Made by a program: the position numbers and the translations under genes
Part shown: piece after piece, positions 8,843 through 63,500 of the stretch
Layout of the letters: each line of letters begins with the position of its first letter
How positions within the stretch are numbered: the first letter of the stretch is position 1
Assembly (NCBI RefSeq): GCF_035084215.1
Contig: NC_090328.1
Location: forward strand, 86,304,001-86,368,000
Length of the DNA: 64,000 bases
Source of the DNA: Heptranchias perlo
Taxonomy: Eukaryota
Reading direction: 5' to 3'
The notes under the pieces: model-generated
Database searches by the model: none
What the model was told of the DNA's origin: nothing
Seen by the model: only the letters and a program-made list of their open reading frames with translations

Positions 8843-9503
8843 TGTCTGAAAGACTGGTGTGGGATGGAGGGATTCCATCTTATGGAACACTAGCACCAGT
8901 ACTAGGACAGGAAGGAGCTATACCGCTGGGATGGGCTCCACCTGAGCTGGAACAGGACCAGTGTCCCAGCGGAAAGTATGAACAGGGCTGTGGATAGGAC
9001 TTTAAACTAGTAAGACGGGGTGGGGGAGGGATCTGCTGAAAATAACGTAAGTCCGAAGATAAAAGAAATAGGAGATGAGAGTAAAGGTCAGACCAAGGTA
9101 AACAATAAAGGTAACATAAACAGTCAGGAAACAGACACATTTATACAATCTAAGTATAAAATGACTGTTAAAAATAAAGTGAGTGGAACAATTAATCAAA
9201 ACAAATTAAATTGCCTGTACTGCATTGTGCGCAGCAGCCGAAACAAAATGGGGGAACTGGGGGCAATAATTCGTAGCGAGGAGCTAGATGTAGTGGGGAT
9301 AACTGAAACATGGCTACATAAGAAGCAGGACTGGCAGTTAAATATTGCAGGATATAACATATTTAGAAAGCAGAGGGAAGGAAGAAGGGGGTTGTGGGAT
9401 AGCTGTACTAATTAGAGATAACAATGGCAATAGAAGAAAGGGACATAAATGACATTAAGAGAGAAAGAGAATCCATATGGTTTGAAACAAAGGATGAGAA
9501 GGG
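8843..9503 (+). mobile_element. CR1 LINE 'A', 5' part (end of ORF1 esterase domain and start of ORF2 endonuclease)
   Basis: 8882-9010 reads MEH*HQY*DRKELYRWDGLHL..RAVDRTLN* (DGLH motif of CR1 ORF1), then LDVVGITETWL..NIAGYNIFRK..ESIWFE. Confidence 0.85.
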
Positions 9504-12452: not shown

Positions 12453-12976
12453 GATCACTGAGGCACTGTACGAGCTATGCAACAGATTCAACAGATTCCC
12501 ACTTGACAGAGAGAAGCAGAATGAGTGAGCACGAGGGTTTGCTCGCATTGCAGGATTCCCCAGGGTGCAGGGTGTCATTGACTGCTCGCATATTGCCATG
12601 TGTGCTCCACATCTCAACTCGGCCATCTTCATGAACAGAAAGGGATTCCACTCCCTCAATGTGCAGCTGGTGTGTGACCACACTCAGCGCATCATGATGG
12701 TCAATGCCAGATACCCTGACCGGAGCCCTGCAGTGTTCAGCCGAGTCAAGATACTTTGTTGAATGCTGTATGCTGCACAACCTCGCCCTTATGAGAGGTC
12801 AGCCCTTGCCACCGCCCTATCCAGCAAGACCCTGAGTCAGAGGAAGAGGCGGAAGAGGCGGAGGAGGAGGAGACGGAGATGGAGGAGGGAGTGGAGATAG
12901 AGGCAAGGAGGCAAGTTGCACAGATCTTGTCTGCCAGGGCTCTGCGTGCTCACCTTATTCATAAGTGATATCAGTA
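12453..12976 (+). pseudogene. Harbinger (HARBI1-family) DDE transposase fragment
   Basis: GFARIAGFPRVQGVIDCSHIA..NRKGFHSLNVQLVCD..ARYP, then after an internal deletion near 12720 GALQCS..CCMLHNLALMRGQPLP and an acidic tail. The segment expected to carry the second D and the E is missing. Confidence 0.9.
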
Positions 12977-13174: not shown

Positions 13175-15054
13175 CTATTCGCCCTTGTGCATTCCCTCAG
13201 TGCCTGTCGTTTGGGCGCCTTTTCCTTTCATAGTACTCCTATGAGGTGCACCCCAAGTGGCTGGAGCATGGGTGGTGGAAAGCTGCTGACTTTCAATTGA
13301 GGAGCGTGTAGTTGGCTGTGAAGGATGATCTTGAGCAGCTCTGGGACGGGAGGGCCCGGCTTCAGACTGCACCATCTCAGCCTGGGCTGCAGCAGTCTGG
13401 CCTGGCTGGCTGACAGGCAACAGCAAGGTCACTGGTGGAGAGGTACGGATGGGAGCAGGAATGCTGTCGTCCAGAGAGAGGACAGCAGGGTTGGGTGCCA
13501 CGGTGCCACTGCCACTTGCACAGGGCGGCGCCTCAGCAATCCCGGTAATCTGCTGGAGAACAGATTGCTGGAGTGCTGTGACGTCCTGGAAGCCCCGTTC
13601 CACAGTGGCACCCAGAGCTACGATAGCAGCAGTCTGAGCCTGTAACGCAGCAGTCTGAGCTTCCAAAGCAGCAGTCTGAGCTCCAAATGAAGCGTGCAGA
13701 CCTTTGATTGCATCTGTTTGTGCTGCAATGGAAGCTGAGAGAATCGGACATCAGATGCAGCATCATGGTGGGATCCACAGGTCTGCGGATGGAGGTGACC
13801 ACCAGTTCCATGTGGGAAAGGATGGGCTCCAAGCTCTGCGCAAAGCCCTGTGCCAAGTTGGAGCCGGACTCCTCCATGCCCCTTGACAGTGTGCGCAGGC
13901 TTTCCAATGCACCAAGCATTTGGTTGTGTACGCCCATCAGCCTTCTTCTGTAGCCTGGCCCATCAAAGCCATCATCCGACTCCTCAGCAGCAGAATTAGT
14001 TTGAAACCTCGCTCTCCGGCGAGCTGGCACCTGTGGTATCCATTCCCCCTGCTCTGGCTCATGTGCACTTGTGCTCAGTGTCTCACCACGTGCAGATCCC
14101 TCCTCTAACCTAGCCTCTAAAGCAAGTGCAGTGTCAATATCTGAGCTGGTGGATGCGAGTGTCAGATCAAGTGACAGTGTGGCTTCATTATCACTGCCTT
14201 CTTCCCCCTCCATCTCGGACAGTGCCAACTTCAGTTCTTGGGTATCTACAATGACAAAAGGAGATGGGTTGAGTTGTGGAGAGGGGAGAGGAGCAAGTAA
14301 GACGTGCGCGCTGACACCATCTGCAGCATGTGAGTCAGAAAAGATTGTGGGATGAGGGAGATGTGGGAAACGAAAAGGAGGATTAGGTATCCAGAGATCC
14401 TCATCATCGATACTTCCAGCCGCAGCAATGGTCCACCGAATGATCCCCAGCACGGTCTCCTCCACGGAGGTGAGGACGTGTAGGCGTGCCTGTCCTCCAT
14501 CTGTTCTTTCCTGCTGTCAGCTGTTATGCGCCACCTTCTCCTGCATGACAGACGGAAATGTGTCAGTGAGTGTCCTGCAAGATGTTTAGGTGATGTGCCT
14601 GTCATGGTTGAATAGCTGTCAGTGTTTGTGACCTGTGAGTTGTGGGTGTGTGGATTGCAAGAGTGGTACTGTGTGAGGGTGAGATGCAGCATCTGAAGTG
14701 CAGCATTGCGTACGGATGGAAAGTGTTTGTTGGTGGGTGGGTGACCGGGGGTGTCGTGCGAGGAGCAGTGGTGCAGTTGGTAGGATGTGCTGCTTGACAC
14801 TTGCATTCGCTCACCTTGACCACTCGTGTCAAATCATTGAACTTTTTCCTGCACTGCATCCACATGTGTGGTGCAATGTTCCTGGCATTCATCTCCAAGG
14901 ACACTTCCTCCCACTGCCTCCGCAGCTGGTGTCTGGAGGGTCTCCTGCCACCCTGTAGATACAGGATAGCCCTGCGTGCATCTACCTCCTCCACCAAAGC
15001 CTCCAGTGCGTCATCGGAGAACTTCGGTGCACGCTGTCTTGCAGGTCCAGCCAT
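13175..15054 (-). pseudogene. Harbinger Myb/SANT-like (MSANTD/NAIF1-type) DNA-binding protein gene, three exons
   Basis: Exon 1 15054-14815 is 80 open codons (APKFSDDALEALV..QWEEV..WMQCRKKFNDL) ending AAG|GTGAGC. Exon 2 starts at 14540 after TGCAG (one TGA). Exon 3 starts at 14245 after TTGTAG and runs to MHKGE* with a frameshift near 13740. Confidence 0.85.
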
Positions 15055-15330
15055 TGCACATGTCTTCCTCCACTGATTGCATTGACAGTGCACATCCCCT
15101 TTAAGAGGTGCAGGCTGCCTTTAAGTAGTACTGGCTATGCCCCATATCGGGCCTACTGCTGGTGCGTGCAGCCACTCAATAACGCAGGTAGCGCTGGCTG
15201 CTCACAGCAATCATGGAGATGAGCCAGCAGAATGAATCTCATGCGCTGCCTGCATCTCAATGACCGGGCATGAGTTAATCGCACACCACGACCCCCGCAC
15301 TCAGACTCAGGGGTTAGCGAATTTAACCCC

Positions 15331-17570
15331 CATAGAATAAAAACCATGGGAGATTTCAACTACCCCCAAATAAACTGGCATGAAGGGGTAGGGAAAAGGG
15401 AAAAGGGAATGGAGTTTTTACAATGTGTTCAGGGCTCCTTTCTTACCCAGAACATAAGAAGCCCAACAAGAGAAGAATCAATACTGGATCTAGCAATGGG
15501 AAATGAACAAGAGGAGATAAAAGAAGTCAGCATAGGGGAACATCTAGGCATTAACGATCATAACATAAAGCAAATAGATTTAAAATAATGATTGAGATAG
15601 ACGTAAGAAAGACAAAGACCAAAATAATAGATTGGAAAAAAGTTAATTTTGAGGGGATGAGAATGGAACTAGAGCAGGTAAGCTGGAAAAGAATGTGGAC
15701 AGACAAATAGATAGAACAGCAGTGAGAAATATTTAAAACTCTGATCAATAGAGTTCAAGAGAAATAAATTCCTCTAAAAACAAGAACAAACTAGCCAATA
15801 ATGCAACGCCATGGATGAATGAAGAGATAAGGGTAAACTTGAAACTAAAAAAGGCATACACTAAGTACATAGGCAAAAAAGGAGAGGATGACAAAAGGGA
15901 ATATGATCAGGAAAGAACAAAAAAAAAATTAGGAAAGCAAAGAGGAACTATGAAATTAAATTATCGAGGAATATAAAAAGAAATACTAAAGTATTCTACA
16001 GAAACATAAATAACAAAAGAAAAATCAGGATAGAGATAGGGCCACTAAAGGGTACGCACGATAAACTCACAACTAATGATAGTGAAATGGCAGAAATATT
16101 GAATAGTTATTTTGCCTCAGTATTTACCAGGGAGACTAACAAGGGGATACGACATTAGAAGATCAAAAAAGATATAAAAACATTTAAGATAGAAAGGGGG
16201 GAGATCATTGATAAACTATCAAACTTAGAGAGGATAAAACCTCTGGTCTGGATGGATTGCAACCGTGCATAATAAAAGAAGTTAGGGAAGAGATAGCAGA
16301 GGCACTATTATGTGTATATAAAAATTCATTAGAAAAGGGAATAGTGCCAGAGGACTGGCGGAGAGCTAATATGATTCCTATATTTAAAAGGAGAGAGAGA
16401 ACAAGTCCAGGGAACTATAGACCAGTTAGCTTAACGTTGGTGGTAGGAAAGATAATGGAATCTTTATTCAAAGATGTAATACAAAAACATCTAGGAACCA
16501 AAAATATAATAAAGGGTATTCAGCACAGATTTCAAAAGGGAAAGTCATGCTCAACCAACCTTACTGAATTCTTTGAAGTAACAGAAAGAGTAGACAAGAG
16601 TAATGCAGTAGATGTAATATATTTGGATTTTCAAAAGGCCTTTGAAAAGGTACCACATAGTAGACTCATGACTAGAGTCACAGCATATGGAGTCAGGGGA
16701 GAATGGATAGCAAACTGGCTACAAAACAGAAAACAGGGAGTAGGGGTTAAGGGTAGCTACTCAGACTGACAAAAGGTGGGAAGTGGTGTTCCACAGGGAT
16801 CGGTGTTGTTCACAATTTACATTAATGATTTGGACTGGGAAATTGGAAGTACAATTTCAAAATTTGCAGACGACTCCAAATAAGGGGGTATAGTTAAAAC
16901 AAAGGAAGAATGCGACAAAATACAGGAAGGCATTAATAAACTTGCAGAATTGCTGTGTAAATGGCAAATTAATTTCAATATAGATAAGTGTGATGTGGAC
17001 CAATTTGGTAGGAAAAATAAGAAGGCCACAAACTGCTTGGATACTAAGAGTCTAAATGGTGTAGAGGAGCAAAGGAATCTCGGGGTACAGATACACAAAT
17101 CACTAAAGGCAGCGACACAGGTTAATAAGGCCATTAAGAATGCAAACCAAGCACTGAGGTTCATTTCAAGAGGGATAGAATTCTAAAGCAGTGAAATTAT
17201 GTTAAACTTGTATAGAACCTTGGTTAGACCACACTTGGAGTAGTGTGTACAGTTCTGGTCTCCATATTTAAAATGCATATAGAGGCATTGGAGAAAGTGC
17301 AAAAAAGATTCACAAGGATGATACCAAGGATAGACTTATCAGGAAAGGCTGAACAGGTTGGGGCTCTTTTCTTTCGAAAAGAGGGATGACCTGATAGAGG
17401 TCTTTAAGATTATTGAAAGGGTTTGATAGGGTAGAAATAGAGAAAATATTTCCACTTGTGGAAGTGTCCAAAGATAGATGTCATAAAGATACGATAGTCA
17501 CTAATAAATAGTCACTAATAAACCTAATAGGGAATTCAAGAGAAATTTCTTCACCCAAAGAGGGTAAAGG
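15331..17570 (+). mobile_element. CR1 LINE 'A', continuation (EN C-terminal half and RT), decayed
   Basis: MGDFNYPQINW..PTREESILDL..NDH; NYRPVSLT; YLDFQKAFEKVPH; FADD; RNFFTQR. Same A-rich composition as 8843-9503. Confidence 0.9.
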
Positions 17571-30624: not shown

Positions 30625-32022
30625 TCATAGAATCGTAGAATCATAGAATGGTTACACCACGGAAGGAGGCCATTCGGCCCATCGAGTCCGCACCGGCTCT
30701 CTAGCAATTCAGCTAGTCCCAATCCCCCACCCTATCCCCGTAGCCCTGCACAATTTTTTGTTTCAAATACTTATCCAGTTCCCTTTTGAAGGCCATGATT
30801 GAATCTGCCTCCACCACCCCCTCGGGCAGTGCATTCCAGATCCCAACCACTCGCTGTGTAAAAAAGTTTTTCCTCATGTCACCTTTGGTTCTTTTGCCAA
30901 TCACCTTAAATCTATGCCTTTGGTTCTTGACCCTTCCGCCAATGGGAACAGTTTCTCTCTATCTACTCTGTCTAGACCCTTCATGATTTTGAATACCTCT
31001 ATCAAATCTCCTCGCAACCTTCTCTGTTCCAAGGAGAACAATTCCAGCTTTTCCAGTCTATCCACATAATTTAAGTCCTTCATCCCTGGAATCATTCTAG
31101 TAAATCTCTTCTGTACTCTCTCTAAGTACTTCACATCTTTCCTAAAGTGCAGTGCCCAGAACTGGACACAATACTCCAGTTGTGGCCGAATTAGTGTTTT
31201 ATAAAGGTTCATCATGACTTCCTTGCTTTTGTACTCTATGCCTCTATTTATAAAGCCCAGGATCCCGTATTTTTTTTTAATCGCTTCCTCAATCTGCCCT
31301 GCCACCTTCAACGATTTGTGCACATAAACCCCCAGATCCCTCTGTTCCTGTACCGCTTTTAGAACTGTGCCCTCTAGCTTATATTGCGTCTCCTCATTTT
31401 TCCTACCGAAATGCATCACCTCACATTTTTCCACGTTAAACTTCATCTGCCACGTGTTCACCTATGCCACCAGCGTGTCTATATCCGCTTGAAGTCTATC
31501 ACTATCCTCCTCAGTGTTCACTACACTTCCAAGTTTTGTGTCATCTGCAAATTTTGAAATTGTGCCCTGTACACCCAAGTCCAAGTCATTAATATATATC
31601 AAGAAAAGTAGTGGTCCCAGCGCCGATCCCTGGGGAACACCACTGTACACCTCCCTCCAGTCCGAAAAACAACCGTTCACCACTACTCTCTGTTTCCTGT
31701 CATTCAGCCAATTCTGTATCCATATTGTCCCCTTTATCCCATGGGCCGCAATCTTAATAGCAAGCCTACCATGTGGCACTTTATCAAACACTTTTTGAAA
31801 GTCCATATACACCACATCAACTGCATTGCCCTCATCTACCCTCTCTGTTACCTCATCAAAAATCAAGTTGGTTAAACACGATTTGCCTTTAACAAATCTG
31901 TGCTGACTTTCCCTAATCAATCCACACTCGTCCAAGTCACTGTTAATTCTGTCCTGGATTATCGTTTCCAAAAGTTTCCCCACCACCGAGGTTAAACTGA
32001 CTGGCCTATAGTTGCTGGGTTC
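30625..32022 (-). mobile_element. CR1 LINE 3' half (RT) with (ATTCTATG)n tail
   Basis: [41 protein letters not shown]; CATAGAAT repeats at 30626-30649. Confidence 0.93.
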
Positions 32023-34862: not shown

Positions 34863-35044
34863 GTAGTACGTTAGCATTGGTTAGATATTGGCTGCTGGCT
34901 CACTTTACCGTGTGTCAAATATTGCATTTATACTGTCATTTTTGCAACTATGCAAAATGGTTTTAGATGTAAATCAATGCAAAAATGGCAGTGCAACTCA
35001 GAAGATTATTGAGCACCCTGAGGTATAAACCCCTTCTCGGAGGT

Positions 35045-36372: not shown

Positions 36373-38478
36373 GGGCTGAATTTATGAGTCCACACTGCTG
36401 GTGAGGATCTTGCCAGCCAGCAGCATATAATGGTAATTCAAATGTGCATTACTCACAATTTTCTGATTTGATTTGAAGTAATGGACTTCTGAGTTGTACT
36501 GCCACGAATGCATTGATTTGCATCTAAAACCATTTTGATGCAAAAATGGCAGTATAAATCCAACCTTAACCATATTTGATACATGGTAAAGTGAACCAGC
36601 AGCTAGTATATGACCAATGTTACTACCACCAGTTCCTACTCCCATCCACAAACCATGGGTGGTACAAGTCAGGAAACAGCCATTTCCAGTGATATTTAAA
36701 GGGATCCTCGGCTGCTCTCAGGTCAAGGTGTAAAGAGTTATGGGAGATATCTTGCTTGTGTTAGATAGTGAGCTGTTTCCTGGGCTGTCCTTTCCATCTA
36801 CATCTACTCCTGCTCACTTGTGCTGGGTGAATCGTCCAGTGCAGACCTCTCTAAATCATTATCTATGCTACTCAGGGTCCTGACTTCTGTGCTGGTGCTT
36901 AGAAGGATCACAACGCGTGACTGCGCATGTTCAGGTGGTTCTCCACCTCAGTCTGTGTGACTAAAATGCCTGAGTCATCTGATGGGTCTAGAAAAAAGGA
37001 AGAGGGATAAGGGTTAGCACATTGTGACATGGGTAAACAGTAACAGATGAGTAGCATGCCGATGTACCACCAGGTTGTCATGCTAAATGCATGACTATGT
37101 GAATGTGTTGTGCCTGCCTGCAGCCTGGTCACCTTTGATGCTGCATGCCCTCTTTCTGCCAATAATGTTAATGGTAGCCTCTTCCATTAGTGTCAGCATC
37201 TGTTGAGTGGCAGGACCTCTTTTGGTTGTCTCCCTCTGTTGTGTTCCAGCTGCTCCTGTAAGAAGAGTGGAAGTGGGTTAAAATGTGGAAGGGTTTTCAA
37301 AGATATACACGGCAATTTAGTATAGTGTCTATGATGAGAGTAAGAAGGAGCAAGTGAGGCAGTAGCAGGTTTTGAGGGTACAAGTGCAAGCAGAAAGGAG
37401 GTGCAGTAAAGTGTTCCCTGCTGACTTGAAGAGAGCCATGAGAGTGGGGAAGGGAAGGATTTAAGGCTAAGGCAAAGGTAGGCTCCTGCAGGGCTGCGAA
37501 GAGAGTGTGAGAGATATGAAGGAGAGTCTTACCTTGGTCATCCTGATCAGATTGTTAATTTTTTTCAGACACTGCAGCCAGGCCTTAGGCACAATGCTGG
37601 TGACATTAATATTTTCTGACACCTCTCTCTATGCCTGTTAATTGATTTGTCTTGGCACCTTTCACCCAACAGAGGGGAAAAGGACCTCCTTCCTGCTACT
37701 CATTTTTTTTTAATTCATTCATGGGATGTGGGCGTCGTCGGCAAGGCCAGCATTTATTGCCCATCCCTAATTTCCCTTGAGAAGGTGGTGGTGAGCCGCC
37801 TTCTTGAACCACTGCAGTCCGTGTGGTGAAGGTTCTCCCACAGTGCTGTTAGGTAGGGAGTTCCAGGATTTTGACCCAGCCACGATGAAGGAACGGCAAT
37901 ATATTTCCAAGTTGGGATGGTGTGTGACTTGGAGGGGAACGTGCAGGTGGTGTTGTTCCCATGTGCCTGCTGCCCTTGTCCTTCTAAGTGGTAGAGGTCG
38001 TGGGTTTGGGAGGTGCTGTCGAAGAAGCCTTGGCGAGTTGCTGCAGAGCATCCTGTGGATGGTACATACTGCAGCTACGGTGTGCCAGTGGTGAAGGGAG
38101 TGAATGTTTAGGGTGGTGGATGGGGTGCCAATCAAGCGTGCTGCTTTGCCATACGTTCAATCAGAACCTCCACTGCTGCATCAGGGAACTTGGGGGCCCT
38201 GTTCAAAGTTCAAAGTCATTTTGCCTGCTGATGCACAGTGTCACTAGTCACTGTCCACCACTATAAAAGCACCTCCCCTTTAAGGTGCTACTAGATGCCT
38301 TTAAGCAGCAGCCACCTGCTGGATGTCCCACCCTTCCGATCAGTGAGCTGCCTATAGGGGATGCATTTCGCACTCAACAAATTTAGGCCTGGTACATGCC
38401 ATTTGAGGATTCTTTCAGGTGGGGTGCAGTGCATACCCAATACCCGCTCAATATGCGCATCACACAAAAATCACCCCC
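36373..38478 (-). mobile_element. Internally deleted Harbinger element retaining Myb exons 1-2 and the exon 3 start
   Basis: Minus strand RAPKFPDAAVEVLIERM [LINE insertion] SRKEVLFP..WLQCLKKINNLIRMTK|GTAAGA; exon 2 after TTACAG (EQLEHN..LTLMEEATINIIG); ends GGGCTGAATTT and AAAATCACCCCC. The left boundary is less certain. Confidence 0.75.
37702..38148 (-). mobile_element. Zenon-like LINE 3' fragment inserted into Myb exon 1
   Basis: High identity to 6553-6994 (IHSLHH..WNSLPNSTV..HHHLLKGN*), including hairpin and tail. Confidence 0.92.
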
Positions 38479-40791: not shown

Positions 40792-43782
40792 TCGAACAGG
40801 AAGAAATGTCAGGAAGGGTAATAGTGCATCAGTAAATAAGGTCAAATCAGAGAAAAATAGTATAAACTTAAAATTAAAGGTGCTTTACCTGAATGCACAA
40901 AGCATTCGTATCAAGATAGATGAATTAATGGCACAAATAGAGATAAATGCGTTTGATATAGTAGCCATTACTGAGATATGGTTGTAAGGTGACCAAGGTT
41001 GGGAACTAAATATTCCAGTGTACTTGACGTTTCGAAAAGACAGACAGAATGGATGAGATAAAGATAGTAGTGAGAAAAGATCTTGGCTCGGAAGATCAGG
41101 AAGTAGAATCAGTATGGGTGGAGATAAGAAATAACAAGGGGCAGAAAACATTGGTGGGAGTAGTCTATAGGCCCCCTAAGAGTGGTTATACTGTTGGACA
41201 GAGTATTAATCAAGAAATAAGAGGAGTTTGTAACAAAGGTAATGCAATGATTGTGGGGGATTTTAATCTTCATATAGACTGGGCAAATCAAATTGGCAAA
41301 AGTAGTTTGGAGGATGGTTTATAGAATGATTTGAAACATTTTTCTCGAACAATAAGTCGTGGAACCTACCAGGGAACAGGTTATTTTAGATCTTGTCTTG
41401 TGTAATGAGACAGGGTTAATTAGTAATCTCATAATAAAGGATCCTCTAGGGCAGAGTGGTCATAATATGATGGAATTTCGAGAGTGACATACTTAAGTCC
41501 AAAACTGGGGTCTTAAACTTAAACAAAGCCAATTATATAGGTATGAGGGGCAAGTTGGCTATGGTTGATTGGGAAATTAGATTAAACGATATGAAGGTAG
41601 ATAAGCAATGGCAAACATTTAAAGAAATATTTCATAATTCTCAATGAATATACATTCCATTGAGCAACAAGGGATGGGCAATAAATGCCGACCTCGCCAG
41701 CGACGCCCACATCCCATGAACGAATTTTTTAAAACTCCACGAGAAAAGTGATCCATCCATGGCTAACTAAAGAAGTTAAGGATAGTATTAGATTAAAAGA
41801 AGAGGCTTATAATGTTGCCAAGAAGAGTAGTAAGCCTGAGGATCGGGAGAGTTTTAGAAACCAGGAAAGGATGACCAAAAAATTGATAGAGGTAGAAAAT
41901 AGAATGAGAGTAAACTAGCAGAAATATAAAAACGGATTGTAAGAGCTTCTACATGTATGTAAAAAGGAAGAGAGCAGCAAAAGTAAACGTGGGTCCCTTA
42001 GAGGTTGAGACAGGAGAAATTATAATGGGGAATAAGGAAATGGCAGAGACATTAAACAAATATTTTGTATCTGTCTTCACAGTAGAAAACACAAAAATCA
42101 TATCAGAAATAATGGAGAACCAATGGCTTAAGAGAGTGAGGAACTTAAAGTCATTAATATTAGCAAGGAAAAAGTACTGGAGAAATTAATGGGACTAAAA
42201 GCTAACAAAACCCCTGGACCTGATGGCCTACACCCCAGGGTTCTAAAAGAGGTGGCTGCAGAGATAGTGGATGCTTTTGATCTTCCAAAATTCCCTAGAT
42301 TCTAGAATGGTCCCAGCGGATTGGAAGGTAGCAAATGTAAAACAGCTATTCAAAAAAGGAGGGTGAGAGAAAACAGAGAACTACAGATCAGTTAGCCTGA
42401 CATCAGTAGTCTGGAAAATGCTGGAATCTATTATTAAGGATGTGGTAATGTGGTAGTAGAAAAACATAATATGATTAGGCAGAGTCAACATGGTTTTATG
42501 AAAGGGAAATCATATTTGACAAATCAATTAGAGTTTTTTGAGGATGTAACTAGCAGGGAACATAAAGGGGAACCAGTAGATGTAGTATATTTGGATTTTC
42601 AAAAGGCATTTGATAAGGTGCCACACAAAGGGTTGTTACACAAGATAAGGGCTCATAGTGTTGGGGGTAATATATTAGCATCAATAGAGGATTGATTAAT
42701 GGACAGAAAACAGAGAATAGGAATAAACAGGTCATTTTCAGGTTGGCTGGCTGTAACCAGTGGGGTGCCGCAAGGATCAGTGCTTGGGCCTCAGCTATTT
42801 ATAATCTATATTAATGACTTAGATGAAGGGACTGAGTGTAATGTATCCAATTTTGCTGACGATATAAAGCTAGATGGGAAAGTAAACTGTGAGGAGGACA
42901 CAAAGAGTCTGCAAAGGGATAGAGACAGGTTAGTGAGTGGGCAAGAAGGTGGCAGATGGAGAATAATGTGGGGAAATGTGAGGTTATTCACTTTAGTAGG
43001 AAGAATATTAAAACAAAATATTTTTTAAATGGTGAGAAACTATTAAATGTTGGTGTTCAGAGGGATTTGGATGTCCTTGCACAAGAAATACAGAAAGTTA
43101 ACATGCAGGTACAGCAAGCAATTAGGAAGGCAAATGGTATGTTGGCCTTTATTGCAAGTGGGTTGGCGTACAAGAGTAAGGAAGTCTTGCTGCAATTGTA
43201 CAGGGCTCTGATGAGACCACACCTGGAGTACTGTGTACAGTTTTGGTTTCCTTACCTAAGGAAGGATATACTTGTCTTTGAGGCAGTGCAACGAAGGTTC
43301 ACTAGATTAATTCCTGGGATGAGAGGGTTGTCCTATGAGGAGAGATTGAGTAGAATGGGCCTATACTCTCTGGAGTTTAGAAAAATGAGAGGTGATCTCA
43401 TTGAAACATATAAGATTCTGAGGGGGCGTGACAGGGTAGATGCTGAGAAGCTGTTTCCCCTCGCCGGAGAGTCCAGAACTAGGGGGCATAGTCTCAGGAT
43501 AAGGGGTCAGCCATTTAGGACTGAGGTGAGGAGAAATTTCTTCACTCAGAAGGATGTGAATTTTTGGAATTCTTTACCTCAGAGGGCTGTGGATTCTGAG
43601 TCGTTGAGTATATTCAGGGCTGAGATCGATAGATTTTTGGACTCAAAAGGAATCAAGGGATATGGGAATAGGGCGGGAAAGTGGAGTTGAGGTCAAAGAT
43701 CAGCCATGATCTTATTGAATGGCGGAGCAGCTTCGAGGGGCCATATGCCCTACTGCTGCTCCTATTTCTTATGTTCTTATGT
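40792..43782 (+). mobile_element. CR1 LINE with near-complete decayed ORF2 and tail
   Basis: [66 protein letters not shown], (TATGTTCT)n; possible TCATAA TSD. Confidence 0.93.
41670..41730 (+). mobile_element. ~60-nt insertion consisting only of the Zenon-like LINE 3'UTR
   Basis: AGGGATGGGCAATAAATGC..GCCAGC..GCCCACATCCCATGAA matches 6932-6990 and sits within an A-run of CR1 ORF2. Confidence 0.88.
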
Positions 43783-43830
43783 TCATAAATACCTTTCCTG
43801 CTGCTTCTCCTCCTCCTCAATCTCCTCCTC

Positions 43831-44105
43831 CAGAACAAGGACATAGATATAAGATTGAATGTTCCAGATTTAGCAGGAGAAACTTTGTTTACGCAGAGGG
43901 TTCTGAGGCTGTGGAATGCACGGCCAGAGTTAGTGATTGAAGCAGAGACCATGTCAACGCTTAAGAATAGGTTACATAGGTGGCTGAAGGAAAGGGGAGT
44001 AAAGGGATATGGGAACAGAGAACATGGGATTAGGACTATTGTTCGTGTGGAGGATGAACACCAACACGGGCTGATTGATGCAATTTCTGTGTAATTCTAT
44101 GATTT
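43831..44105 (+). mobile_element. CR1 3' fragment of a different subfamily
   Basis: LFTQRVLRLWNARPELVIEAET..KGYG with an ATTCTATGATT tail. Confidence 0.8.
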
Positions 44106-45074
44106 TGAACAACTCATAGGCGTATCTGCCTGGAAATGTTTAGTAAATATGCTTTTGCACCAATAGGGGCGTTCAGATGGTCTGGAGTACTGTGTCCACA
44201 GGATTCCTTATTAGGATTTTATTGGTTGACGCGGCACCAAACTGACACTAGAGCTGTCCGACATATATTAGTGCAGCCACTTCCTGGACACTAGTCAGTC
44301 ACCAGAATTATGTAAAAATAATACTGTGGGGTTGGACGGAGCAGTCTGCGGTGTAGTACAGAGCTGGCTTAGTGGACGGGACATATCTAATTCTCTAAAA
44401 TGTGTACACTTTGGAACAAAGGAATCAAAACAGAAAAATGGGTTCTCCTGTTACGTTAACGGGCGGACTGTGTATTTACAGCAGTTTTTGTTTCTATTTC
44501 AGATTGCAGTATTTACTGTGTTTTTTTCTTTTTGTCCCCTGTAATTTATTAAAAATGAATACAAATCGACAAGTAAAGCTATTGAAATGATATGGTCTAT
44601 TTAAATGGCACAAGTTGAAATATACGCACGTCAATTGCCACCTCTGCAGTGATGCACTCGGTGTGATCTTGAGCATTGGCGCAATGCAACGTTGCAGTTA
44701 TGTTTGTGTGGCTGGAGCTGAGAGCTCTCGGTTTCTGCGTGGAAGTTTGAAAGCAATCTGATAATAAAACACTTACTTTTGCAGTAGTTTTTCAAAAAAA
44801 AATCATTTGGTTTATTACGCGGCCACATTCAGCTGACATGACATATGGAACCCAGTAAAAATAAAACTTCTGACAACCATTTGGAATGATTCAGACAAAC
44901 GGGAGATGCCGTGCAATTGCGGAATGAGCTTCTTGAGACCAAACTTTACTGCAACCATTAATGTCTCCTTTGCAACAAAAAATATTAGTATTAACAAAGT
45001 TCTATCGATGTCCTTATTCGCTCCAAATACTCTTCATTCCGCGGATAAGTTCCATAAAACCCAGAGAGAAATGC

Positions 45075-45805
45075 TTCTAAGTTAAAAACAGTGGATGTCC
45101 AAAGGGACTTAGGGATTCAGGTACATAGTTCATTGAAGTGTCATGAACAGGTGCAGAAAATAATCAAGAAGGCTAATGGAATGCTGGCCTTTATATCTAG
45201 AGGACTAGAGTACAAGGGGGCAGAAGTTATGCTATACAAAACCCTGGTTAGACAGCACCTGGAGTACTGTGAGCAGTTCTGGGCACCGCACCTTCGGAAG
45301 GACATATTGGTCTTGGAGGGAGTACAGCGTAGGTTTACTAGAATGATACCTGGACTTCAAGGGTTAAGTTACGAGGAGAAATTACACAAATTGGGGTTGT
45401 ATTCTCTAGAGTTTAGAAGGTTAAGGGGTGATCTGATCGAAGTTTATAAGATATTAAGGGCAACAGATAGGGTGGATAGAGAGAATCTATTTCCGCTGGT
45501 TGGGGATTTTAGGAGTAGGGGGCACAGTCTAAAAATTAGAGCCAGACCTTTCAGGAGCGAGATTAGAAAACATTTCTACACACAAAGGGTGGTAGAAGTT
45601 TGGAACTCTCTTCCACAAACGACAATTGATACTAGCTCAAATGCTAAATTTAAATCTGAGATAGATAGCTTTTTGACAACCAAAGGTATTAAGGGATATG
45701 GGCCAAAGGCAGGTAAATGGAGTTAGATCACAGATCAGCCATGATCTTATCAAATGGCGGAGCAGGCACGAGGGGCTGAATGGCCTACTCCTGTTCCTAT
45801 GTTCC
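45075..45805 (+). mobile_element. CR1 3' fragment, relatively young
   Basis: Open 211-codon ORF2 C-terminus (QRDLGIQVH..WNSLPQ..GKWS*) and GTTCCTATGTTCC tail. Confidence 0.93.
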
Positions 45806-48234: not shown

Positions 48235-50300
48235 ATAGTGTCTCTTTTATCTCCCCTCATGCCTTCTCTGAGCTTATCTTGTGCACGAGACCCACCTCCT
48301 GCTCTCTTAACCCCATTCCCACTAAACAGTTGACCACCCAACTTCTTTTCCTGACCCCATAGTAGCTAACATTGTAAATGGTTCCCCCTCCCTTTCAAAA
48401 CCACTATCATCACCCCTCCTCAAAAAACTCACTCTTAACCCTCTGCCCTTGCAAACCACCGCCCCATCTTCAAACTTTCTTTCCTCTTCAAAGTCCTTTT
48501 ATGTGTTGTCGTCTCACAACTCTGTGCCCAAGTTTCCTGCAATTCTGTGTTTGAACCTCTCCGATCAGGTTTCCGCCACTGCCATATCACTGAAATCGCC
48601 CTAATCATAGTCACAAATGACATCCTATATGACCATGGGGCATTTTCCTTCCTCATCCTCCTCAAACTCTCTGTAACCTTTGACATGGTCAATCATTCCA
48701 TCCTCCTCCGACACCTCACCTATGTTACTCAGCTCAGTGGGACTACCCTCACTTGGTTCCACTCTTACCTATCCAATCATAGCCAAAGCATCTCCAGCAA
48801 TGTCTTTAATTTCAGTCCCCACAATGTTACCTCAGGAGTTCCTGAAGGATCTATCCTTGGCCCCCTCCTTTTCATCATCTACAAGCTGTCCTTTGGCAAC
48901 ATCATCTGAAGACATGGGGTCAGCTTCCATGTGTATGCTGATGACACCCAGCTTTGCCTATCCACCACCTCTCTTGACCCCTCCACTGCCTATGTTCTGT
49001 TTGGCTGCTTGTTCAACATCCAGTCTTGGATGAGCCATAATTTCCTCCAGTTAAACACTAGGAACACCAACACCATCGTCTTTGGCACCTGCCACAAACT
49101 CTGTACCTTTTCCAATGATTCCAATCCCCTCCCCAGCCACTGTCTCAGGTTGACCAGACTTTGGCATCCTATTAGACCACAAGCTGAGCTGCCAACCCCA
49201 TATCCTCTCCATCACAAAGACCGCTGACTTCCACCTCTGTAACATTGCCTACCTCTGTCCCTATATCAGCCCATGTAATGGTGAAACCCTCATCCAGCCT
49301 TTACCATCTACAGACTTGACAATTCCAATGCTCTCCTTGCCGGTCTCCCATCCTCCATGTTCTGTAAACTTCAGCTCATCCAAAACTCTGCTGCCCATAT
49401 CCTATCCTGCAATAAGTCCCGTTCACTGCTCACCCATCCTTGCTGACCTACATTGACTCCTGGTCACCCCCCCCCCAGAGTCTCCAATTTTAAATTCTCA
49501 TCCTCACATTTAAATCCCTTCAAGGCCTTGCCCCTCCCTATCTCTGTAACCTCTTCCAGCCCTACAAATCCCCAGAACTCTCCATTCCTCTGAGTCTGGC
49601 CTCTTGTGCAAGCCCCTCCCTAATTCCACCTTTGACAGCCGTGCCTTCAGAATCTGGATTCCATGTTCAAAAATTCCCTGCCTAAGCCCCTTCACTTCCC
49701 TTTCCGCCTATAAAAGCTCCCTTAAAGGTGTTGGCTTTGGCTCAGTGGTAGCACATTGGCCTTTGAATCAGAAGGTTATAGGTTCATAGTCCCACTCCAG
49801 AGACTTAAGCAGATAATTTAGATTGACACTTAATTGCAGTACTAATGTAATGTTGGATGTAGATGTTAAACTCACAAGTAGACCTAAAAGACCCCATGGC
49901 ACTATTGGAAGAAGAGCAGGGGAGTTGTCCCAGTGTCCTGGTCAGTATTTATCCCTCAGCCAACATTACTAAAGCAAATTATCTCATTGCTGCTTGTGGC
50001 ACCTTACTGTGTATAAATTGGCTTCCATGTTCCCCTACATGAATACACTGTGAAGTGCTTTGGGAGGTCTTGAAGTTGTAAAGGCATTGTATAAATGCAA
50101 GATCTTGCTTAAAATCCAACTCTTTAACTAAGCTTTTAGTCACCCCTACGAATATCTCTTTTTTTTGGATTGGCATCTATTATTGTCTGAATATGTCTCT
50201 GTGAAGTACTTTGGGACATTTTTCTATATTATAGTTGCTGTATAAATGGATGTTATTATTGTTGCTGTTATTGTTGGTGTTGTTGATGATGATGATGATG
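48235..50300 (+). mobile_element. L2 LINE, RT and 3' end, decayed
   Basis: SGFRHCHITEIALIIVTNDIL, LSVTFDMVNHSILL, GVPEGSILGPLLF, MYADDTQL, LQLIQNSAA; (TTG/ATG)n tail. Confidence 0.9.
49727..50107 (+). mobile_element. Full-length Deu-type SINE inserted in the L2 3' region
   Basis: TGGCTCAGTGG A box and GGTTCATAGTCCC B box; CTTAAA duplicated at 49721-49726 and 50108-50113. Confidence 0.88.
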
Positions 50301-51310: not shown

Positions 51311-52094
51311 CACAATACTCACATATACACGCACACAAGAAGGAATGGAATAACTTGTGAGGTGCTTCAGTAGAAATAAGAGATGGTTAAATGGCAGAAG
51401 TGATATTAGGATAGTGAGCATAGGGAGCGAAATCAAAGGAATTAAAGACATATATGAGACACAGAGAATGTATGAATAACTCAGGAGGTGGAGCACAGGG
51501 CACCTAGAAATGGAAACAGAAAAAACTGGCAAGAAGTAGGTTCCGGCAGCCCAGAAGCCAGAAGAACAAAAGAGAAGGACCACACTAAGGATGCAGACTG
51601 GCCCAACAGCACAAGGTTCCGATCGAAGATCAACTCGTCTTGCTCTTCCCTGAAAAGCCGTCACACCCGTCCCGGATTACAACAGTTCAAAAGTACCTTA
51701 TTGGCTGTAAAGCGCTTTGGGACGTATGAGGTGCTGAAAGGCACTGTGTACATGCAAGTTATTTATTTCTTACACTTCATCAACACTTCCTACCAAAAAG
51801 AAAGTGGGAGTTATAGTTAAGATCTCCAGTTATTAAAGTCGATATTAAAACCAGAGGGCTGCCGAGTGCCTAACAGAAAAACATGGTGTTGTTCCTCAAG
51901 CTTGCGTTGAGCTTTATTGAATAATTAGAGTTAAGTTTGCTTAAATGTCCCGTCAAAAGATGGAGTCCTTGTAAACGTTTGCCTTAAGATAGCATTCTGG
52001 GCCGACAATAAAAAAACACTTGGCCTTGAAATTACCCTGTGGATAACAATACATACGTTATCGTGTTTGCCTGATATTCCTCTATTATTTTAGC

Positions 52095-52252: not shown

Positions 52253-53757
52253 TATTATTTTAGCGGAGAAGTTAGCGTGTATAAAATAAACGAGTGAAGA
52301 TGCCTCCATTACAAACATCAAAACTGCCACCGTGTCATTTCAGTGTCCATACCTAGGTTTAGTCAATAGTCATGCAATTTTAACTGCTCTCAGCGTCATT
52401 TATATAATCGTTTTCGTAACTTTATATCAAAAATGTGTGAAGACACATTTTACATTAGGTGAAGTTTAATTAAAACGAATTATTGGGAATTATCCGATTG
52501 CATTTTATTTCGAAAAATTCCAGAAGCGTCTCAAATTAAACGCGTGTTTGTCATTAATTCTATATCCGCTAATAAAATTGTCTTTCTGACACAATAAAAG
52601 TAATCCAGAGTTGCATCTGCACGGGCAATTGCGTGATATTTCTGTTTCACGTATTTTGTTGCAATTCTAAGATGTTCAATATCAATCATTCACCCATATC
52701 CCCTTTTCGTTTAAATACTGTCAATCCAAGGGATCCAGAAATTACATTGAAAAATAACCTAAGGTTGATCACCTAAGACAGTTTAACAGTAGTTAGTTTC
52801 GAGGTATCTGAAACGATAACTGGACCTTAAACCGCTACAGCTTTCCTCAGAAGTGGAATTTAGGTACAAAGTCAACAAGTTGCTTGATTCGGAAATCCTA
52901 TGTTGTTTATATATGACTGTGGATCACACATCGATACTGTTAGGGAGAATACCCCTACATTTCTAAGTTTTCATTCTAAATATTTGGCATATGTGAGCTC
53001 CCGTCACTATAAGCTCATTTCTCCTGGAGATCGAAGTATAACGGTGTTTAAATAAAGGCTGTTTAAGGACTTTCTTTATCTTCTCCTTTTCCAAATGGTT
53101 GCAACCATATCCTTTGAGGCGATTGCTACTGTGCCATTTCCTATATGCGATTCATATGCGGAATGGTGGGATTAGGGTCTGGTTTAACACCTCTGCTCGC
53201 CCAGGCGGGGAGTCCCCGAGAGGCAGTCGCCAGACTAAACTCCCAACAGCTGGGGGCGGCTCAAGGAAACACCTTTTAACAATGATTTTAACATCGACTG
53301 GACGAAGCTCTCCCAAATATGCAGGCACACTGCAAAACGTTTTCGTTTCGGTAAGTGTGCCACGCTGAGTTGTTTCACAGAATCCCCACAATAAGTTACA
53401 ACCCATAACCTTATCTCCCCGTGTTTATTTACCTCGGCACATCCCAAAACATCGGCAAACTTCTCGAAATACCAGTCAGATTTTCCTATAACTCAACAGA
53501 AATGAATCCTACGTTTCACTATTTATACCAACTGGGGTCGGATTTCCAAGAAGAACAGAGCTAGATTGATTTCAGTCCTTTACATTCACTAATTTACAAC
53601 TGTTGTGAGTAATCATTGGGCTGTAGATATTAATCTTCGACCCGTTTAAAATGCAAGGCTGCCTCACACTCGTCCGCACTGGCTGCACAGTGTTATCACA
53701 GTGATAGGATTTATTGCTCAGATATCCCGTACCCGTTTATGCCGAACACACCTTGTA

Positions 53758-54038
53758 ATTTAAAGCAAAATACTGCGGATGCTTGAAATCTGAAATAAAA
53801 ACAGAAAATGCTGGAGAAGCTCAGCAAGTCAGGCAGCATCTGTGGAGAAAGAAACAGAGTTAACGTTTCAGGTCAAAGACCTTTGGTCAGAACTGGAAGA
53901 TGTTACAAGATTTTTTTTTCCTTCTAACATCTTCCAGTTCTGACGAAAGGTCTTCGACCTGAAACGTTAACTCTCTTTCTTTCTCCATAGATGCTGCCTG
54001 ACTTGCTGAGCTTCTCCAGCATTTTCTGTTTTTATTAT
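53758..54038. mobile_element. Palindromic Penelope-like-derived element: 112-bp inverted arms, 10-bp TSD
   Basis: Arms 53794-53905 and 53925-54036 are near-perfect reverse complements around a 19-nt loop; ACACCTTGTA at 53748-53757 and 54039-54048. Confidence 0.88.
53936..53972 (+). ncRNA. Putative minimal type-I hammerhead ribozyme
   Basis: Stem I AGUU/AACU, core CUGACGA (53940-46), extra A, stem II AGGUC-UUC-GACCU, GAA, palindromic ACGU, GUU cleavage triplet. The mirror copy on the minus strand (53858-53894) has CUGACCA. Confidence 0.65.
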
Positions 54039-54724
54039 ACACCTTGTAGTTTTTTTCTGTCCCTTTCCCGCTAAACATTCTCCGAACAAAATAGTTTCCA
54101 GTTCTGTCCGCGTGTTTACTATCTTGAAGCCGATTACTAGTTTTTAGGAGACCGTCTTCGTCATGTTTTTTTCGCACTGAGGTTTTTATTGCATCAATTC
54201 GCTGAGCTGAATTTGTTTTACAGGATTAGAGGCGACGCCGGCCGAGACCCGCTCTGCAGATACAATAAAGTGTCGATTTTAATCGATTTGTCCTTCACGG
54301 GTAGAATGTCAACCATTTGGGGAAGTGTGTAAACAGCACGGCAAAGAATCGCGAAATGGGAGAAGATCCTGGGATTTATTTCTATCACAGTCTGTCGATC
54401 ATTGCTTGCGGCGCTTTTTAAAATACATCATTTCAAATGTCTTGTGTTAACAGCAACCTGTGAGCATGATTCCATTCATTTTAATCTAAACAAATGATTT
54501 TTAGACCACACCAACTACATTTAGTCGGAAAGTTGGATCGAAGCAGAAAAAGTTCCATTAATTTTATTGCCTGGACTATTTTCAGTTGATTTTATAACCA
54601 TCTCCCTCTTACTCCATAAAAATCCTCAATCCCCAGCTCCTTCTCTTTACCCCATTCTCCCAAGCTCCTATGTTCCTCCTCTATCCCCTTTTCCCATCTA
54701 AATCCTTATCCCAGATACCTGGAG

Positions 54725-55085: not shown

Positions 55086-56174
55086 ATGACACTGTGTGGA
55101 GATCCGAGCGGTGGGGGCCAGCAGAAGATGGTGGGGCCCGAGGAAGCAGAGATCGACATCATTGGGGATGAAGATGGGGAGGAAGAGGAGGAGGAGGAGA
55201 CCACCCAAAGGCAGGGGCTGTACTTTCTCAGTGCGAGAGGGGACGGAGAAACACTGGCAACAGGAGAAGCGGAGCAATCCGAGACAGACTGCTCTCTGGA
55301 CTCGGAGAGCAGCGAGGTGTGTCTCAACACCAGCGGGAAGCCCAAGGTGAACGTGGTCAAACCTCCCTATTCCTACATCGCTCTGATCACCATGGCCATC
55401 CTACAGAGCCCTCAGAAGAAGCTGACTCTCAGCGGCATCTGTGAGTTCATCAGCAGCCGCTTCCCTTACTACCGGGAGAAGTTCCCCGCCTGGCAGAACT
55501 CCATCAGGCACAACCTGTCCCTCAATGACTGTTTCATCAAGATCCCCCGGGAGCCCGGGAACCCAGGAAAGGGCAACTACTGGACCTTAGATCCGGCATC
55601 GGAGGACATGTTCGACAACGGCAGCTTCCTCCGCAGGAGAAAGCGATTCAAGAGGCACCACCACCAGACTGAGTTGATGAAGGACCGCGGCGGCCTCATG
55701 CTCTACCACAATTTCACCTGTTACGGCCGGCCTTACCTTCTCCACCCGCAGACATTCATCCAGCAGGCGCCCTTCAGGTACATGCCCATCCCCGATGGTG
55801 CTGTCATCTCCACCCCTGCCCACAACCTACCCTACCAGCGCTTCAGCAGAAAGGTTCACCACTCGCAGCCCAACAGCTCAGCTCTGCAGATACACCTTCA
55901 AACCATCGGTTCAAAGCCCAGCGCCGCTAGTTCCAACCGGGCCTCGTTCAGCATCGAAAACATCATTGGAAGTTCAAATGCTCCATCGGGGTTCCTGCCT
56001 TCCTGTTCAAACCCTCAGATCCAGTCTGATTATTGCAGCCTTCTCCAATCGGCCCCCTGTCTGCTGTCTACGGTTTTAAACATGTCCACACGAACTGTCT
56101 ACAGCCCCGGGAACAATCCTCTGATCGGGGCGCTCTCAACCAGGCAGCAGCTCCCTCCCTGCTACCCACCATAA
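55086..56174 (+). CDS. foxd5: Forkhead box D5 (FoxD4/5, FoxD4L1-like) transcription factor, single exon, 362 aa
   Basis: MTL start, EIDIIG acidic N-terminal motif, forkhead domain [77 protein letters not shown] block and eh1 motif FSIENII. FIKIP, DPASED and YGRPY favour D5 over D1/2/3. The ORF track's GTG start at 55080 is not used. Confidence 0.93.
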
Positions 56175-60530: not shown

Positions 60531-63500
60531 AATTATTGTAATTAAATATTTGTTTGTAAACTAGCCTGACATAAAAATGTTAAAAGAGGTACCAAGTATA
60601 ACTCAACCTACTATCTAACCATGTCTTGTACATGTTCAAGTTGAAAACTTAATACAAGCATTCATACTGTGCTATTACTCAAAATTAAGATAAACTAAGA
60701 CTAGCAACCCCCATTACAGCAATTGGTTGCAGTTTATTATGGTCAGCAGGCTTCAATCTAGTTGGCTATAGTGATTGTATACTGACTGGTATTTAGAAGT
60801 CATATAACATGAGGAATTCAGACTCCTCCAGTGTCCAGAGTTTAATAGGACAGGTGTACTGCTTATTTTATACAGTTTGATTTTTTTCCCCCTAATTTTT
60901 GTCATATGCTTTATTAGTGAATGTCCTATGGGAACTAATCAAGGTATCATCCACCAGGGATGGCAAAACACTGATCTAACACTTATCTTTCAATAATCAG
61001 GTCATCAAGTGAAATGTGTCTAGTTTGGGTGCAAAACAAACCTTCAATTGTGAGAAGATATCCATTCTGTGAGGCAGTAGGATCTAATCTCTATTCGGTG
61101 CTGGGGTGTCTAAGAACCATAGTTTGCACAGCCAATGCGTATAACCGTTAACTCTGCTTTTACTTTTGAACTCCCTTTTGTATCAGGGAAAATGGAGAGA
61201 TTGCATACACAAACCTCCTTCACCTCCAGGATCCATGAAAAGGCTACATACTGCCTCTGTAATTGAGCAGAAATAAAGGAACCGGTGGTTGTCTAGAGCA
61301 TCACACAGGCCTATCTCCAGATGTTGTGATTTCCTGAACTACCTCTAGGAGATTCTTCCACTTGTGGGGGTAAGCTATGAGATGACTGTCACTATGGTAT
61401 CTACTCTTGCTAAATGTTGAATCGAGAGAGTAATCTCGTGATCCAGACTGGCATACTTGTAGCAGTGCACCATGATAAAGGGAGTAGTGAGCCATTGTTG
61501 CATTGTCAGCTACACACTGAAACATTAGGGAACTGCAAGTTCATCATATATAAAGATATTACCTCCTAGATTTACTTAAAAAAATTTCAACTATTTTCAG
61601 GGGAATAAAAAAAGTGTAATACATCTCTACCCATAAACTTGGATTCACAACCAAAGCTTGTTATGTATACTCACTGACACCTGTCCTCAATTATCTGGGG
61701 CAGCTCTGCATTCCTGTTAAGTCACCAATAATTTGCTACTTCCACTAAAGTTCTATTAATAAACAGATGAGAACTGAAGCTCAATCTTGAAATGACGTAC
61801 AAACTTGTTCAGATGGCATTATTTAAACCTTTTGATTGCATGATGTTGTATTTCCTGGCAATTCTTTTCCAACCTTTCTACCAAAGGAAACATTCCACAT
61901 GATGTATTTCCTGCAGGAAAACTAAGGGATTTATAGATCAGCTTCATTTTCTAAGACTGACTTAAATGTTTTGGCTTTTGCCTTCATGTATTTTCATTCT
62001 GTAGGTGGTAGACAAAATGGTATGGAGAGCAAGGATTAACTAGCACAAAGAAATCCAGAATATTATTTCAAAGTGTGTCAACCAGCAATTCAGCCTAGCA
62101 GCTTCTGGTGGATACAAGTGTCACACCACACAGTGCATTTACCCATTAAGTTATTGGGGAGCTTGGTATGTGTACTTTTCTGCGCAGGCCTGTAACTAGC
62201 AAAGCTAAATCCAATCAGAAACGTCTACAGTGTCAATCTTTCCCTTTCACCTCCCCCCATCCTTGCAACGAAGACATCATTAAATATTCAGACCAAACTA
62301 GATAGTATGGTGGGTATAACATTAAAGAATTACATTGAAAACTATTGAGTAGGTTTAAGCCTATAAGCATGATTTTTATGAAAATGTCTTAAGCAGTCTT
62401 TTAGCTTGAGCTGGTAAGACATTGCCATGTGTTTTACAAAAGAGTTATGCAATTAGTGGTTTAGATGCAACATCACAAGCAGATTACAGTTTGAATATAA
62501 GCAAATTTTGACTTTGTTGGGCAAAATGATTGTGCAAGGAGTAGAAAGGTGAAAGGCCATTACTTAAATTGAAATGTTGCATGAATTACTGTATTACATT
62601 CTGTAAAGACATAAAATCTCAATTTTGATTTTAATAGGCATTTTTGATAACACTAACACAAAGGGCATGAATAAATGACAGTTGCTACCATTTATATTGA
62701 ACAATGCTCCAATTTAATTTGAAATAAATTTCATTCTTGTCTCTATTCATCATCTCTCTTTACAAGCCACTATCCAGGTGGCATTTTTCTCCAGCGAGAA
62801 GGGCAAGATAATCTAAGGCCTCCCTATAGCAGACTTCCAGGCACAAAAATGACCCAAACACTGAGCTTGTAATCTTGCTGATGTGTCAGGAGCACAAGTT
62901 TCATGCTTCTTCCCAGAGAGAATCACAGACAATGACTCCTAGTTGCTTCTGTGTAACTGCCATAGCTGGTTACAGAGACTCATTGATATAGCCCTGAATG
63001 TCGCCTGTTGGAAGAATGGGTTATGGAATGGAAACCTGAAAATGGAACTTGAGAAAATAAATAACAACATCCACCTCCATTCTCAAGCACCCTTCCAAAA
63101 AAGCTTGCTTTCATATAGCACTCATATCTAGCAATCTTGGGAATACATCATTTCTCAACAAGAAAAAGAAATCTAAAAGACAGGCAGTCTCAACCTTCTG
63201 GTTGGAAATCAAGTACTCAACCAGTCTGAAGTACCAGCACTGCAGGAATCTAAGGGGAGATTTTCTGCTTTGGCACTCCAAGCACATGCCAGAAACACAT
63301 ATTGGGAGCGCCAAAGCAGAAAATATCCCCTTTAATTTTTAAAAATTAACTATTTTCCCCTCATGATTTAATGTAGTAGCCCAATTCCAACATTGATATA
63401 TTATGTACGCCAAAGCTGAGGGCTTAAGTGGATTTTTAAAACCTAAAAGATATTTATATAGTACAAAAGACAAAATCTTAGAGAACTGCACACATTCTCA

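Follow-up and report, generated by a model that had tools for sequence, protein, structure and literature searches.

Two head-to-head 3′ ends of a Penelope-like retrotransposon upstream of a probable FoxD5 gene in Heptranchias perlo: likely one insertion with two cDNAs

The fold-back upstream of a probable FoxD5 gene in the window (the whole 64-kb stretch of DNA analysed) is read here, with high confidence, as two 5′-truncated 3′ ends of a Penelope-like element (PLE) placed head to head between target-site duplications (TSDs), likely made in one insertion from two cDNAs and likely a dead end. A preliminary description made from the sequence had reported a young fold-back with back-to-back hammerhead ribozymes at this place, and as an observation this was confirmed as a whole. 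The layout itself is already in print: the available parts of PMC8557442 and PMC3846280 describe PLEs with an inverted pseudo-LTR (pLTR) plus a 30–40-bp tail, and that of PMC4209133 describes opposite-strand hammerhead pairs in metazoan PLEs. Coordinates are collected in Table 1.

The insert is bordered by an exact 10-bp direct repeat (53748–53757 and 54039–54048), as first reported, which extends to a full duplication of 14 bp with one mismatch. Once the 14-bp TSD is set, the insert spans 53762–54038 and measures 277 bp, not the 281 bp originally given for the unit. The inverted arms are real, each 116 nt long, with 5 mismatches between them and an 11-nt spacer; the earlier figure of 112 bp omitted the four innermost pairs, and the 32-nt tail on the left arm was absent from that account. 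Loose ends pile up at 53762 in all four sequencing runs examined. Folding of the whole unit gave −202 kcal/mol (z = −27.9), a value that 0 of 200 shuffles equalled, and isolated arms of 66–86 nt had folds no more stable than those of their shuffles (z −0.4 to −1.1). At 4 of 104 sites, arm-to-arm divergence is the third-lowest among 53 inverted insertions, which makes the insertion young, as it had been called, only in relative terms. Two pyrimidine-rich pseudo-LTR tracts with a terminal AG, at 53971–53990 (+) and 53786–53800 (−), resemble splice acceptors by eye; the second coincides with the inner start site of the family.

Table 1. Positions of the insert, its hammerhead motifs and the neighbouring gene in the window, with genome positions of inverted pairs that carry G8C in both arms
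Feature	Position	Strand	Basis or remark
Left target-site duplication	53748–53761	.	10 bp exact, 14 bp with 1 mismatch
Penelope tail, 32 nt, left arm only	53762–53793	-	53762 is the family outer end
Left arm, pseudo-LTR 3′ end	53794–53909	- (sense)	
Minimal hammerhead with G8C (53885), predicted inactive	53858–53894	-	sequence; G8C effect from the available part of PMC11167929
Junction filler T9CC	53910–53920	.	specific to this insertion, one genome match
Right arm, tail-less pseudo-LTR 3′ end	53921–54036	+ (sense)	ends at second start site
Minimal type-I hammerhead, intact core	53936–53972	+	sequence motif; GUU triplet, A-U closes helix II
Right target-site duplication	54039–54052	.	14 bp with 1 mismatch
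TATA-like box TATAAA	54780–54785	+	sequence; contigs from two related organisms cover this region
Intronless Forkhead gene, probably FoxD5/FoxD4L	55086–56174	+	Pfam Forkhead, E 1.1e-38
G8C in both arms	G000:C1:53924119, C1:102454591, C33:20772731, C33:34308623		

The arms correspond to the final ~150 nt of an element of ~3.3 kb that has reverse transcriptase (RT) and GIY-YIG-type domains. Locus L036 holds a broken, near-full copy of this element, and all twelve single-arm copies run past the arm into common longer sequence. Across the 3.25-Gb genome, the unit gave 3929 first-look candidates (40 of them scored) and the RT piece 15213, and one 19-nt hammerhead motif has 2826 exact copies. Open frames in L094 and L114 lead from the RT through a CX4CxxC linker to a GIY-YIG/CCHH-type end that stops beside the arm; the linker reads CERRRCNTC in L094, the same pattern recurs in L036, L114 and L117, and the DKG motif (KPADKGG) is present in L113 and L118. 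Pfam matches on the parent ORF pieces fell below cut-off (RVT_1, E 5e-4; GIY-YIG, E 0.1), a PDB sequence search with the parent ORF gave 0 matches, and no intact full-length ORF was found among 150 scored, the longest open frame having 659 aa.

By the motif definitions in the available part of PMC8557442, the parent would be classed as an endonuclease-positive PLE of Neptune/Nematis type. It combines an RT with DKG and a following GIY-YIG with CCHH (weak in Pfam), an inverted 5′-truncated copy with a 30–40-bp tail at one end (32 nt here), TSDs of variable length in AT-rich DNA (14 bp here) and a CX2-5CxxC Zn-finger-like linker between RT and endonuclease; in the same excerpts, this linker is absent in Penelope/Poseidon. 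The parent ORF appears, from one broken copy, to begin just after the tail, whereas that of Poseidon PAc of Anolis begins inside the hammerhead (PMC11167929, in the part available). A search of open-licence papers and preprints found no study of this element family in cartilaginous fish. At 51801–51919, 1.8 kb upstream of the insert, lies a decayed remnant (119 bp, 72%) of the endonuclease region of the parent element.

In the plus-strand hammerhead, AGUU (53936–53939) pairs with AACU (53969–53972) as a 4-bp helix I, the core CUGACGA (53940–53946) is followed by one unpaired A, and a 5-bp helix II (53948–53952 with 53956–53960) is followed by GAAA, a C-G pair and UU, with the predicted cut after 53968. 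The core that had been called complete thus reads intact, and the minus-strand mirror copy with a G8C change was found as described. The assignment to Penelope-type elements also holds, since the motifs are minimal type-I PLE hammerheads with a conserved core, a short helix I, an unpaired base before helix II and a palindromic 15.2-16.2. Metazoan PLE hammerheads in the available part of PMC4209133 show the same short helix I, unpaired base between 9 and 10.1, palindromic 15.2-16.2, lack of a helix III and back-to-back pairing. They differ in their conserved G10.1-C11.1, in place of which the 5-bp helix II here is closed by A-U in 116 and by G-U in 17 of 139 arms, and in the spacing of the opposite-strand pairs, 100–700 bp there against ~45 nt at helix I here.

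No hammerhead family in Rfam matched the window at E ≤ 1 or the right arm by itself at E ≤ 10, and the ribozymes are therefore called by reading the motif against the accessible text of PMC4209133. Only hairpin-driven miRNA matches far below gathering scores were returned, and a miRNA identity was rejected; short hairpins at 34928–34996 and 63242–63342 of the window also have weak Rfam miRNA matches of this rank. Inherited hammerhead variants lie mainly in loop II and occur as G-U wobbles, and stem double changes among ~139 arms, copies too alike to be telling on this point, comprised three U-A to C-G, one G-C to A-U and one C-G to U-A. Co-folding two hammerhead copies gave a lowest-energy state other than the hammerhead dimer, in programs that do not model the core. 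In the full unit, helices I and II have a predicted pairing probability of 0.000, and for an RNA that begins at the junction, helix II is predicted to form at ~0.97. An RNA read through both arms is predicted by these folds to zip into dsRNA that hides the ribozyme, as had been proposed, and is expected not to cleave.

Genome-wide, exact-pattern searches recovered 49 fold-backs with a gap of 8–38 nt between the anchors and 222 inverted pairs with a gap of 39–400 nt, with 0 in the controls of either search; sizes form a continuum, with the short palindromes at its lower end. Among 65 loci examined, 53 held a full inverted pair and 12 did not, and 36 of the 53 inverted insertions had their own TSDs of 12–17 bp (at most 2 mismatches; 73% AT). 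A sample unselected for inversion was formed by the first 62 of the 2826 hammerhead-motif matches in list order. Of these arms, 28 start at the tail end, 22 at position 25–45 and 12 elsewhere, and 12 of the 62 have an inverted partner within ~1.5 kb. Their 5′ extents range from 135 to more than 1700 nt, with 9 of 62 ending at 135–146, where the search motif itself forces an extent of at least 135. The family therefore has outer ends fixed by two start sites ~32 nt apart, located 68 and 100 nt after the predicted cut, and inner ends that vary, moderately enriched in the stretch that directly precedes the hammerhead. In 42 of 65 tail-bearing inverted insertions the second arm starts at 29–36. 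A pile-up of 5′ ends at 617–618 was discarded as an artefact caused by rearrangement of L036, the copy used as reference.

We propose a mechanism drawn from how the anole element behaves in vitro, for which the available part of PMC11167929 reports that both strands are nicked and extended and that two internal RT start sites delimit the tail. The element protein would nick both strands ~14 bp apart in AT-rich DNA; one nick would prime reverse transcription at the outer start site and give the tail arm, and the other would prime at the inner site and give the tail-less arm. Both cDNAs would stop after 115–150 nt, just past the hammerhead, and would be joined by end-joining with a short filler. 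G8C would most likely have arisen after insertion, at a CpG. Two cDNAs, one per nick, would explain the tail on one arm, the common duplication and the head-to-head join. Poseidon PAc of Anolis shares the two internal start sites downstream of the hammerhead, the AT-rich targets and a G8C variant (PMC11167929, in part).

Published PLE inserts with an inverted pLTR, such as Adineta Pen2a (PMC8557442; PMC3846280, both in part), likewise have an inverted 5′-truncated copy beside a direct copy, a tail at one end (31 bp against 32 here), a TSD and a pLTR hammerhead. Unlike the inserts in those excerpts, both halves here are only ~115–150 nt long with no coding sequence left, and the TSD is 14 bp rather than the 8–10 bp of Adineta. 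Our literature search (open-licence papers and preprints) found no relevant work on Penelope twin priming with an inverted copy and a tail.

The arms themselves bear on a different origin, in which a single cDNA snaps back near its 3′ end, self-primes or template-jumps, and copies back to the inner site; self-priming is proposed in the available part of PMC3846280. Among the 53 of 71 insertions that offered 90 or more comparable sites (two twins excluded), the two arms of an insertion were closer to each other than shuffled pairs (0.082 vs 0.109), and non-CpG minor alleles common to both arms numbered 96 vs 35 ± 6 in shuffles, the rare ones 14 vs 1.4, an excess of the kind that snap-back would leave. 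It persisted within subfamilies (p 0.001 and 0.006, for 24 and 11 insertions, with 18 others left out). Many junctions are also patchworks of scrambled TTAA-rich fragments derived from the stretch immediately before helix I. The tail arm of the FoxD5-side copy is as long as the other arm, so at this locus the scheme would be workable. Three common inherited non-CpG variants, however, are shared between arms within subfamilies only at shuffle level (both/one arm: 3/11, 5/6 and 3/6), and most of the 22 sampled arms that begin near the inner site have no inverted partner within 1.5 kb. In seven insertions (L039, L040, L126, L129, L130, L162 and L188) it is the tail-less arm that extends deeper into the element. 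Neither arm could have served there as template for the other, and a single snap-back is inadequate. We therefore regard snap-back as an unlikely origin. The simplest reading of these alleles is that the two arms would come from co-active sources, sometimes the same and often different RNAs; arm likeness beyond the shuffles may also fit fold-back copying, arm-to-arm conversion or mutation hot spots. As a separate observation, a tandem array of 628 bp made from an internal piece of the element lies between the arms of a long inverted insertion at L040:1280-1909; these arms differ at 1 of 104 sites.

The preliminary description had gone further and proposed that the fold-back is a non-coding unit mobilised in trans, that is, a palindromic, retrozyme- or MITE-like mini-element copied as a unit by Penelope protein. 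This reading would suit the short fold-backs, of which there are at least 49, alike in size and with outer ends in common. Against it, the FoxD5-side junction occurs a single time in the genome, 46 distinct junction strings are present among 49 short fold-backs, and the sizes of inverted pairs are continuous; breakpoints that vary across copies, which the genome-wide comparison thus found, had been named in advance as refuting the proposal. On the same variable junctions and gaps and the single FoxD5-side junction, a fixed-size master palindrome was rejected. Non-LTR retrozymes, as presented in the available part of 10.64898/2026.07.22.740005, are also non-coding and PLE-derived and carry a type-I hammerhead. 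They are defined there as head-to-tail tandem repeats, whereas the insert is a single head-to-head pair with an unrepeated junction; the 64-kb window holds two arms only, in opposite orientation and with no tandem arrangement, and a retrozyme identity was rejected.

The exception to unit immobility is small and concerns two other palindromes. Of the duplicated junctions, one pair is a plain duplicate (641/641 identical), and two pairs are twins with identical junctions, different flanks and the tail on opposite sides: L007/L013 (G000:C41), 0.52 Mb apart, whose four arms have a rare hammerhead variant in common, and L072/L073 (G000:C14), 0.55 Mb apart. Although such twins are what a mobile unit would produce, their distance of ~0.5 Mb points to local copying rather than dispersal, and they suggest local re-use of a junction through repair templated by a nearby copy, paired insertion or ectopic conversion. 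The same-junction twins go beyond the published work searched (open-licence papers and preprints). We consider the mini-element reading very unlikely overall and largely refuted for the FoxD5-side copy. An older fold-back copy was multiplied within a segmental duplication at L043/L044, whose flanks are identical at 5318 of 5731 positions, and at four more places on G000:C38.

The difference between the two hammerheads, which had been taken for a possible strand-asymmetric switch, matches independent CpG decay. G8 lies within a CpG and is kept in 76% of arms, within the 66–88% of other CpG positions; most non-CpG positions, in or outside the core, are 91–100% conserved across arms, with values at positions 127–137 biased by the search anchor. 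Of 106 arms, 70 retain an intact 11-base core. Both arms had an intact core in 24 insertions, one arm in 22 and neither in 7, against 23.1, 23.8 and 6.1 expected under independent decay (p = 0.59); since pairs with one live and one dead hammerhead occur at chance frequency among the 53, the asymmetry is not a design.

A count by hand gave 46 G8C and 35 G8U arms genome-wide beside the 2826 unchanged ones, and G8C as the mark of a large dead sub-lineage was rejected. The FoxD5-side insertion has G8C in one arm only. G8C is present in both arms of four inverted pairs and G8U in both arms of none, against a rough expectation of 0.07 that assumes 20% of arms to be paired; some G8C may therefore have been inherited from the source or spread by conversion or homogenisation. 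According to the accessible part of PMC11167929, G8C abolishes cleavage, and the anole element inserts normally with it.

The neighbouring gene is probably FoxD5/FoxD4L. Its Forkhead ORF starts at ATG 55086, and the TATAAA lies ~0.73 kb downstream of the insert, in agreement with the ~0.7 kb first given. The only cobW/CBWD match in the genome is on the same contig, ~80 kb from the Forkhead gene, and Cbwd3 neighbours FoxD5a in frog (10.1101/2025.06.11.659201, in the part available), a synteny that supports the FoxD5 label used from the start. Contigs of two related organisms, which hold the same repeat family, cover the flanks (~10–15% other letters) and the promoter region. On the left flank, their match ends at 53763 and 53746, beyond which 93 and 114 letters of the contigs remain, and a contig from the own sample runs from the left flank into the element. 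The ends of the related contigs are a weak hint of an empty site; among the matches listed in the read and contig comparison, no joint skipped the whole insert. One run guessed to be RNA, from another organism, covers only the repeat (4 of 30 bins) and is uninformative on the FoxD5 locus.

Elsewhere in the window, broken LINE-type RT fragments were recognised by eye at 5042–6933, 9020–12528, 16257–16769, 30901–31986, 37767–38135, 42956–45726 and 48547–48909. The stretch at 13175–15093 presumably resembles a Harbinger-type Myb/SANT gene.

The position of the insert upstream of the TATA box, with an intact hammerhead on the gene's strand and a read-through RNA predicted to form ~116 bp of dsRNA, could be taken to mean that it was co-opted as a strand-asymmetric RNA switch or a dsRNA source tuning FoxD5. 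The chance rate of live/dead pairs speaks against this, as does the weak hint of an empty site from contigs that stop at the duplication. With thousands of arms in the genome, one beside a developmental gene is unsurprising. In the available excerpts, moreover, monomers of minimal hammerheads fail to cleave in vitro (PMC4209133), and the hammerhead of the anole element needs protein (PMC11167929). We judge co-option extremely improbable. A FoxD5 gene tuned by the insert would be a rare example of a transposon with a ribozyme being recruited by a developmental gene, and nothing found points there.

The fold-back is thus an ordinary PLE leftover, likely inert, and not a self-spreading RNA switch. 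As one of thousands of family arms, the single copy matters little, and its value is collective: taken together, the copies yield figures that can be tested (two start sites, arms of independent length, alleles discordant between arms, and G8C in both arms) and that bear on how PLEs build head-to-head inserts and on what the hammerhead does. Tentatively, and as a possibility somewhat short of probable, this population of copies may be a record of a dimeric Penelope protein priming two cDNAs from two nicks, often on different RNAs, of G8C-dead sources that transpose, and of junction re-use ~0.5 Mb away with the tail flipped. If this reading is true, it would fill unvalidated steps of the PLE cycle, and the hammerhead would be dispensable for insertion in vivo.
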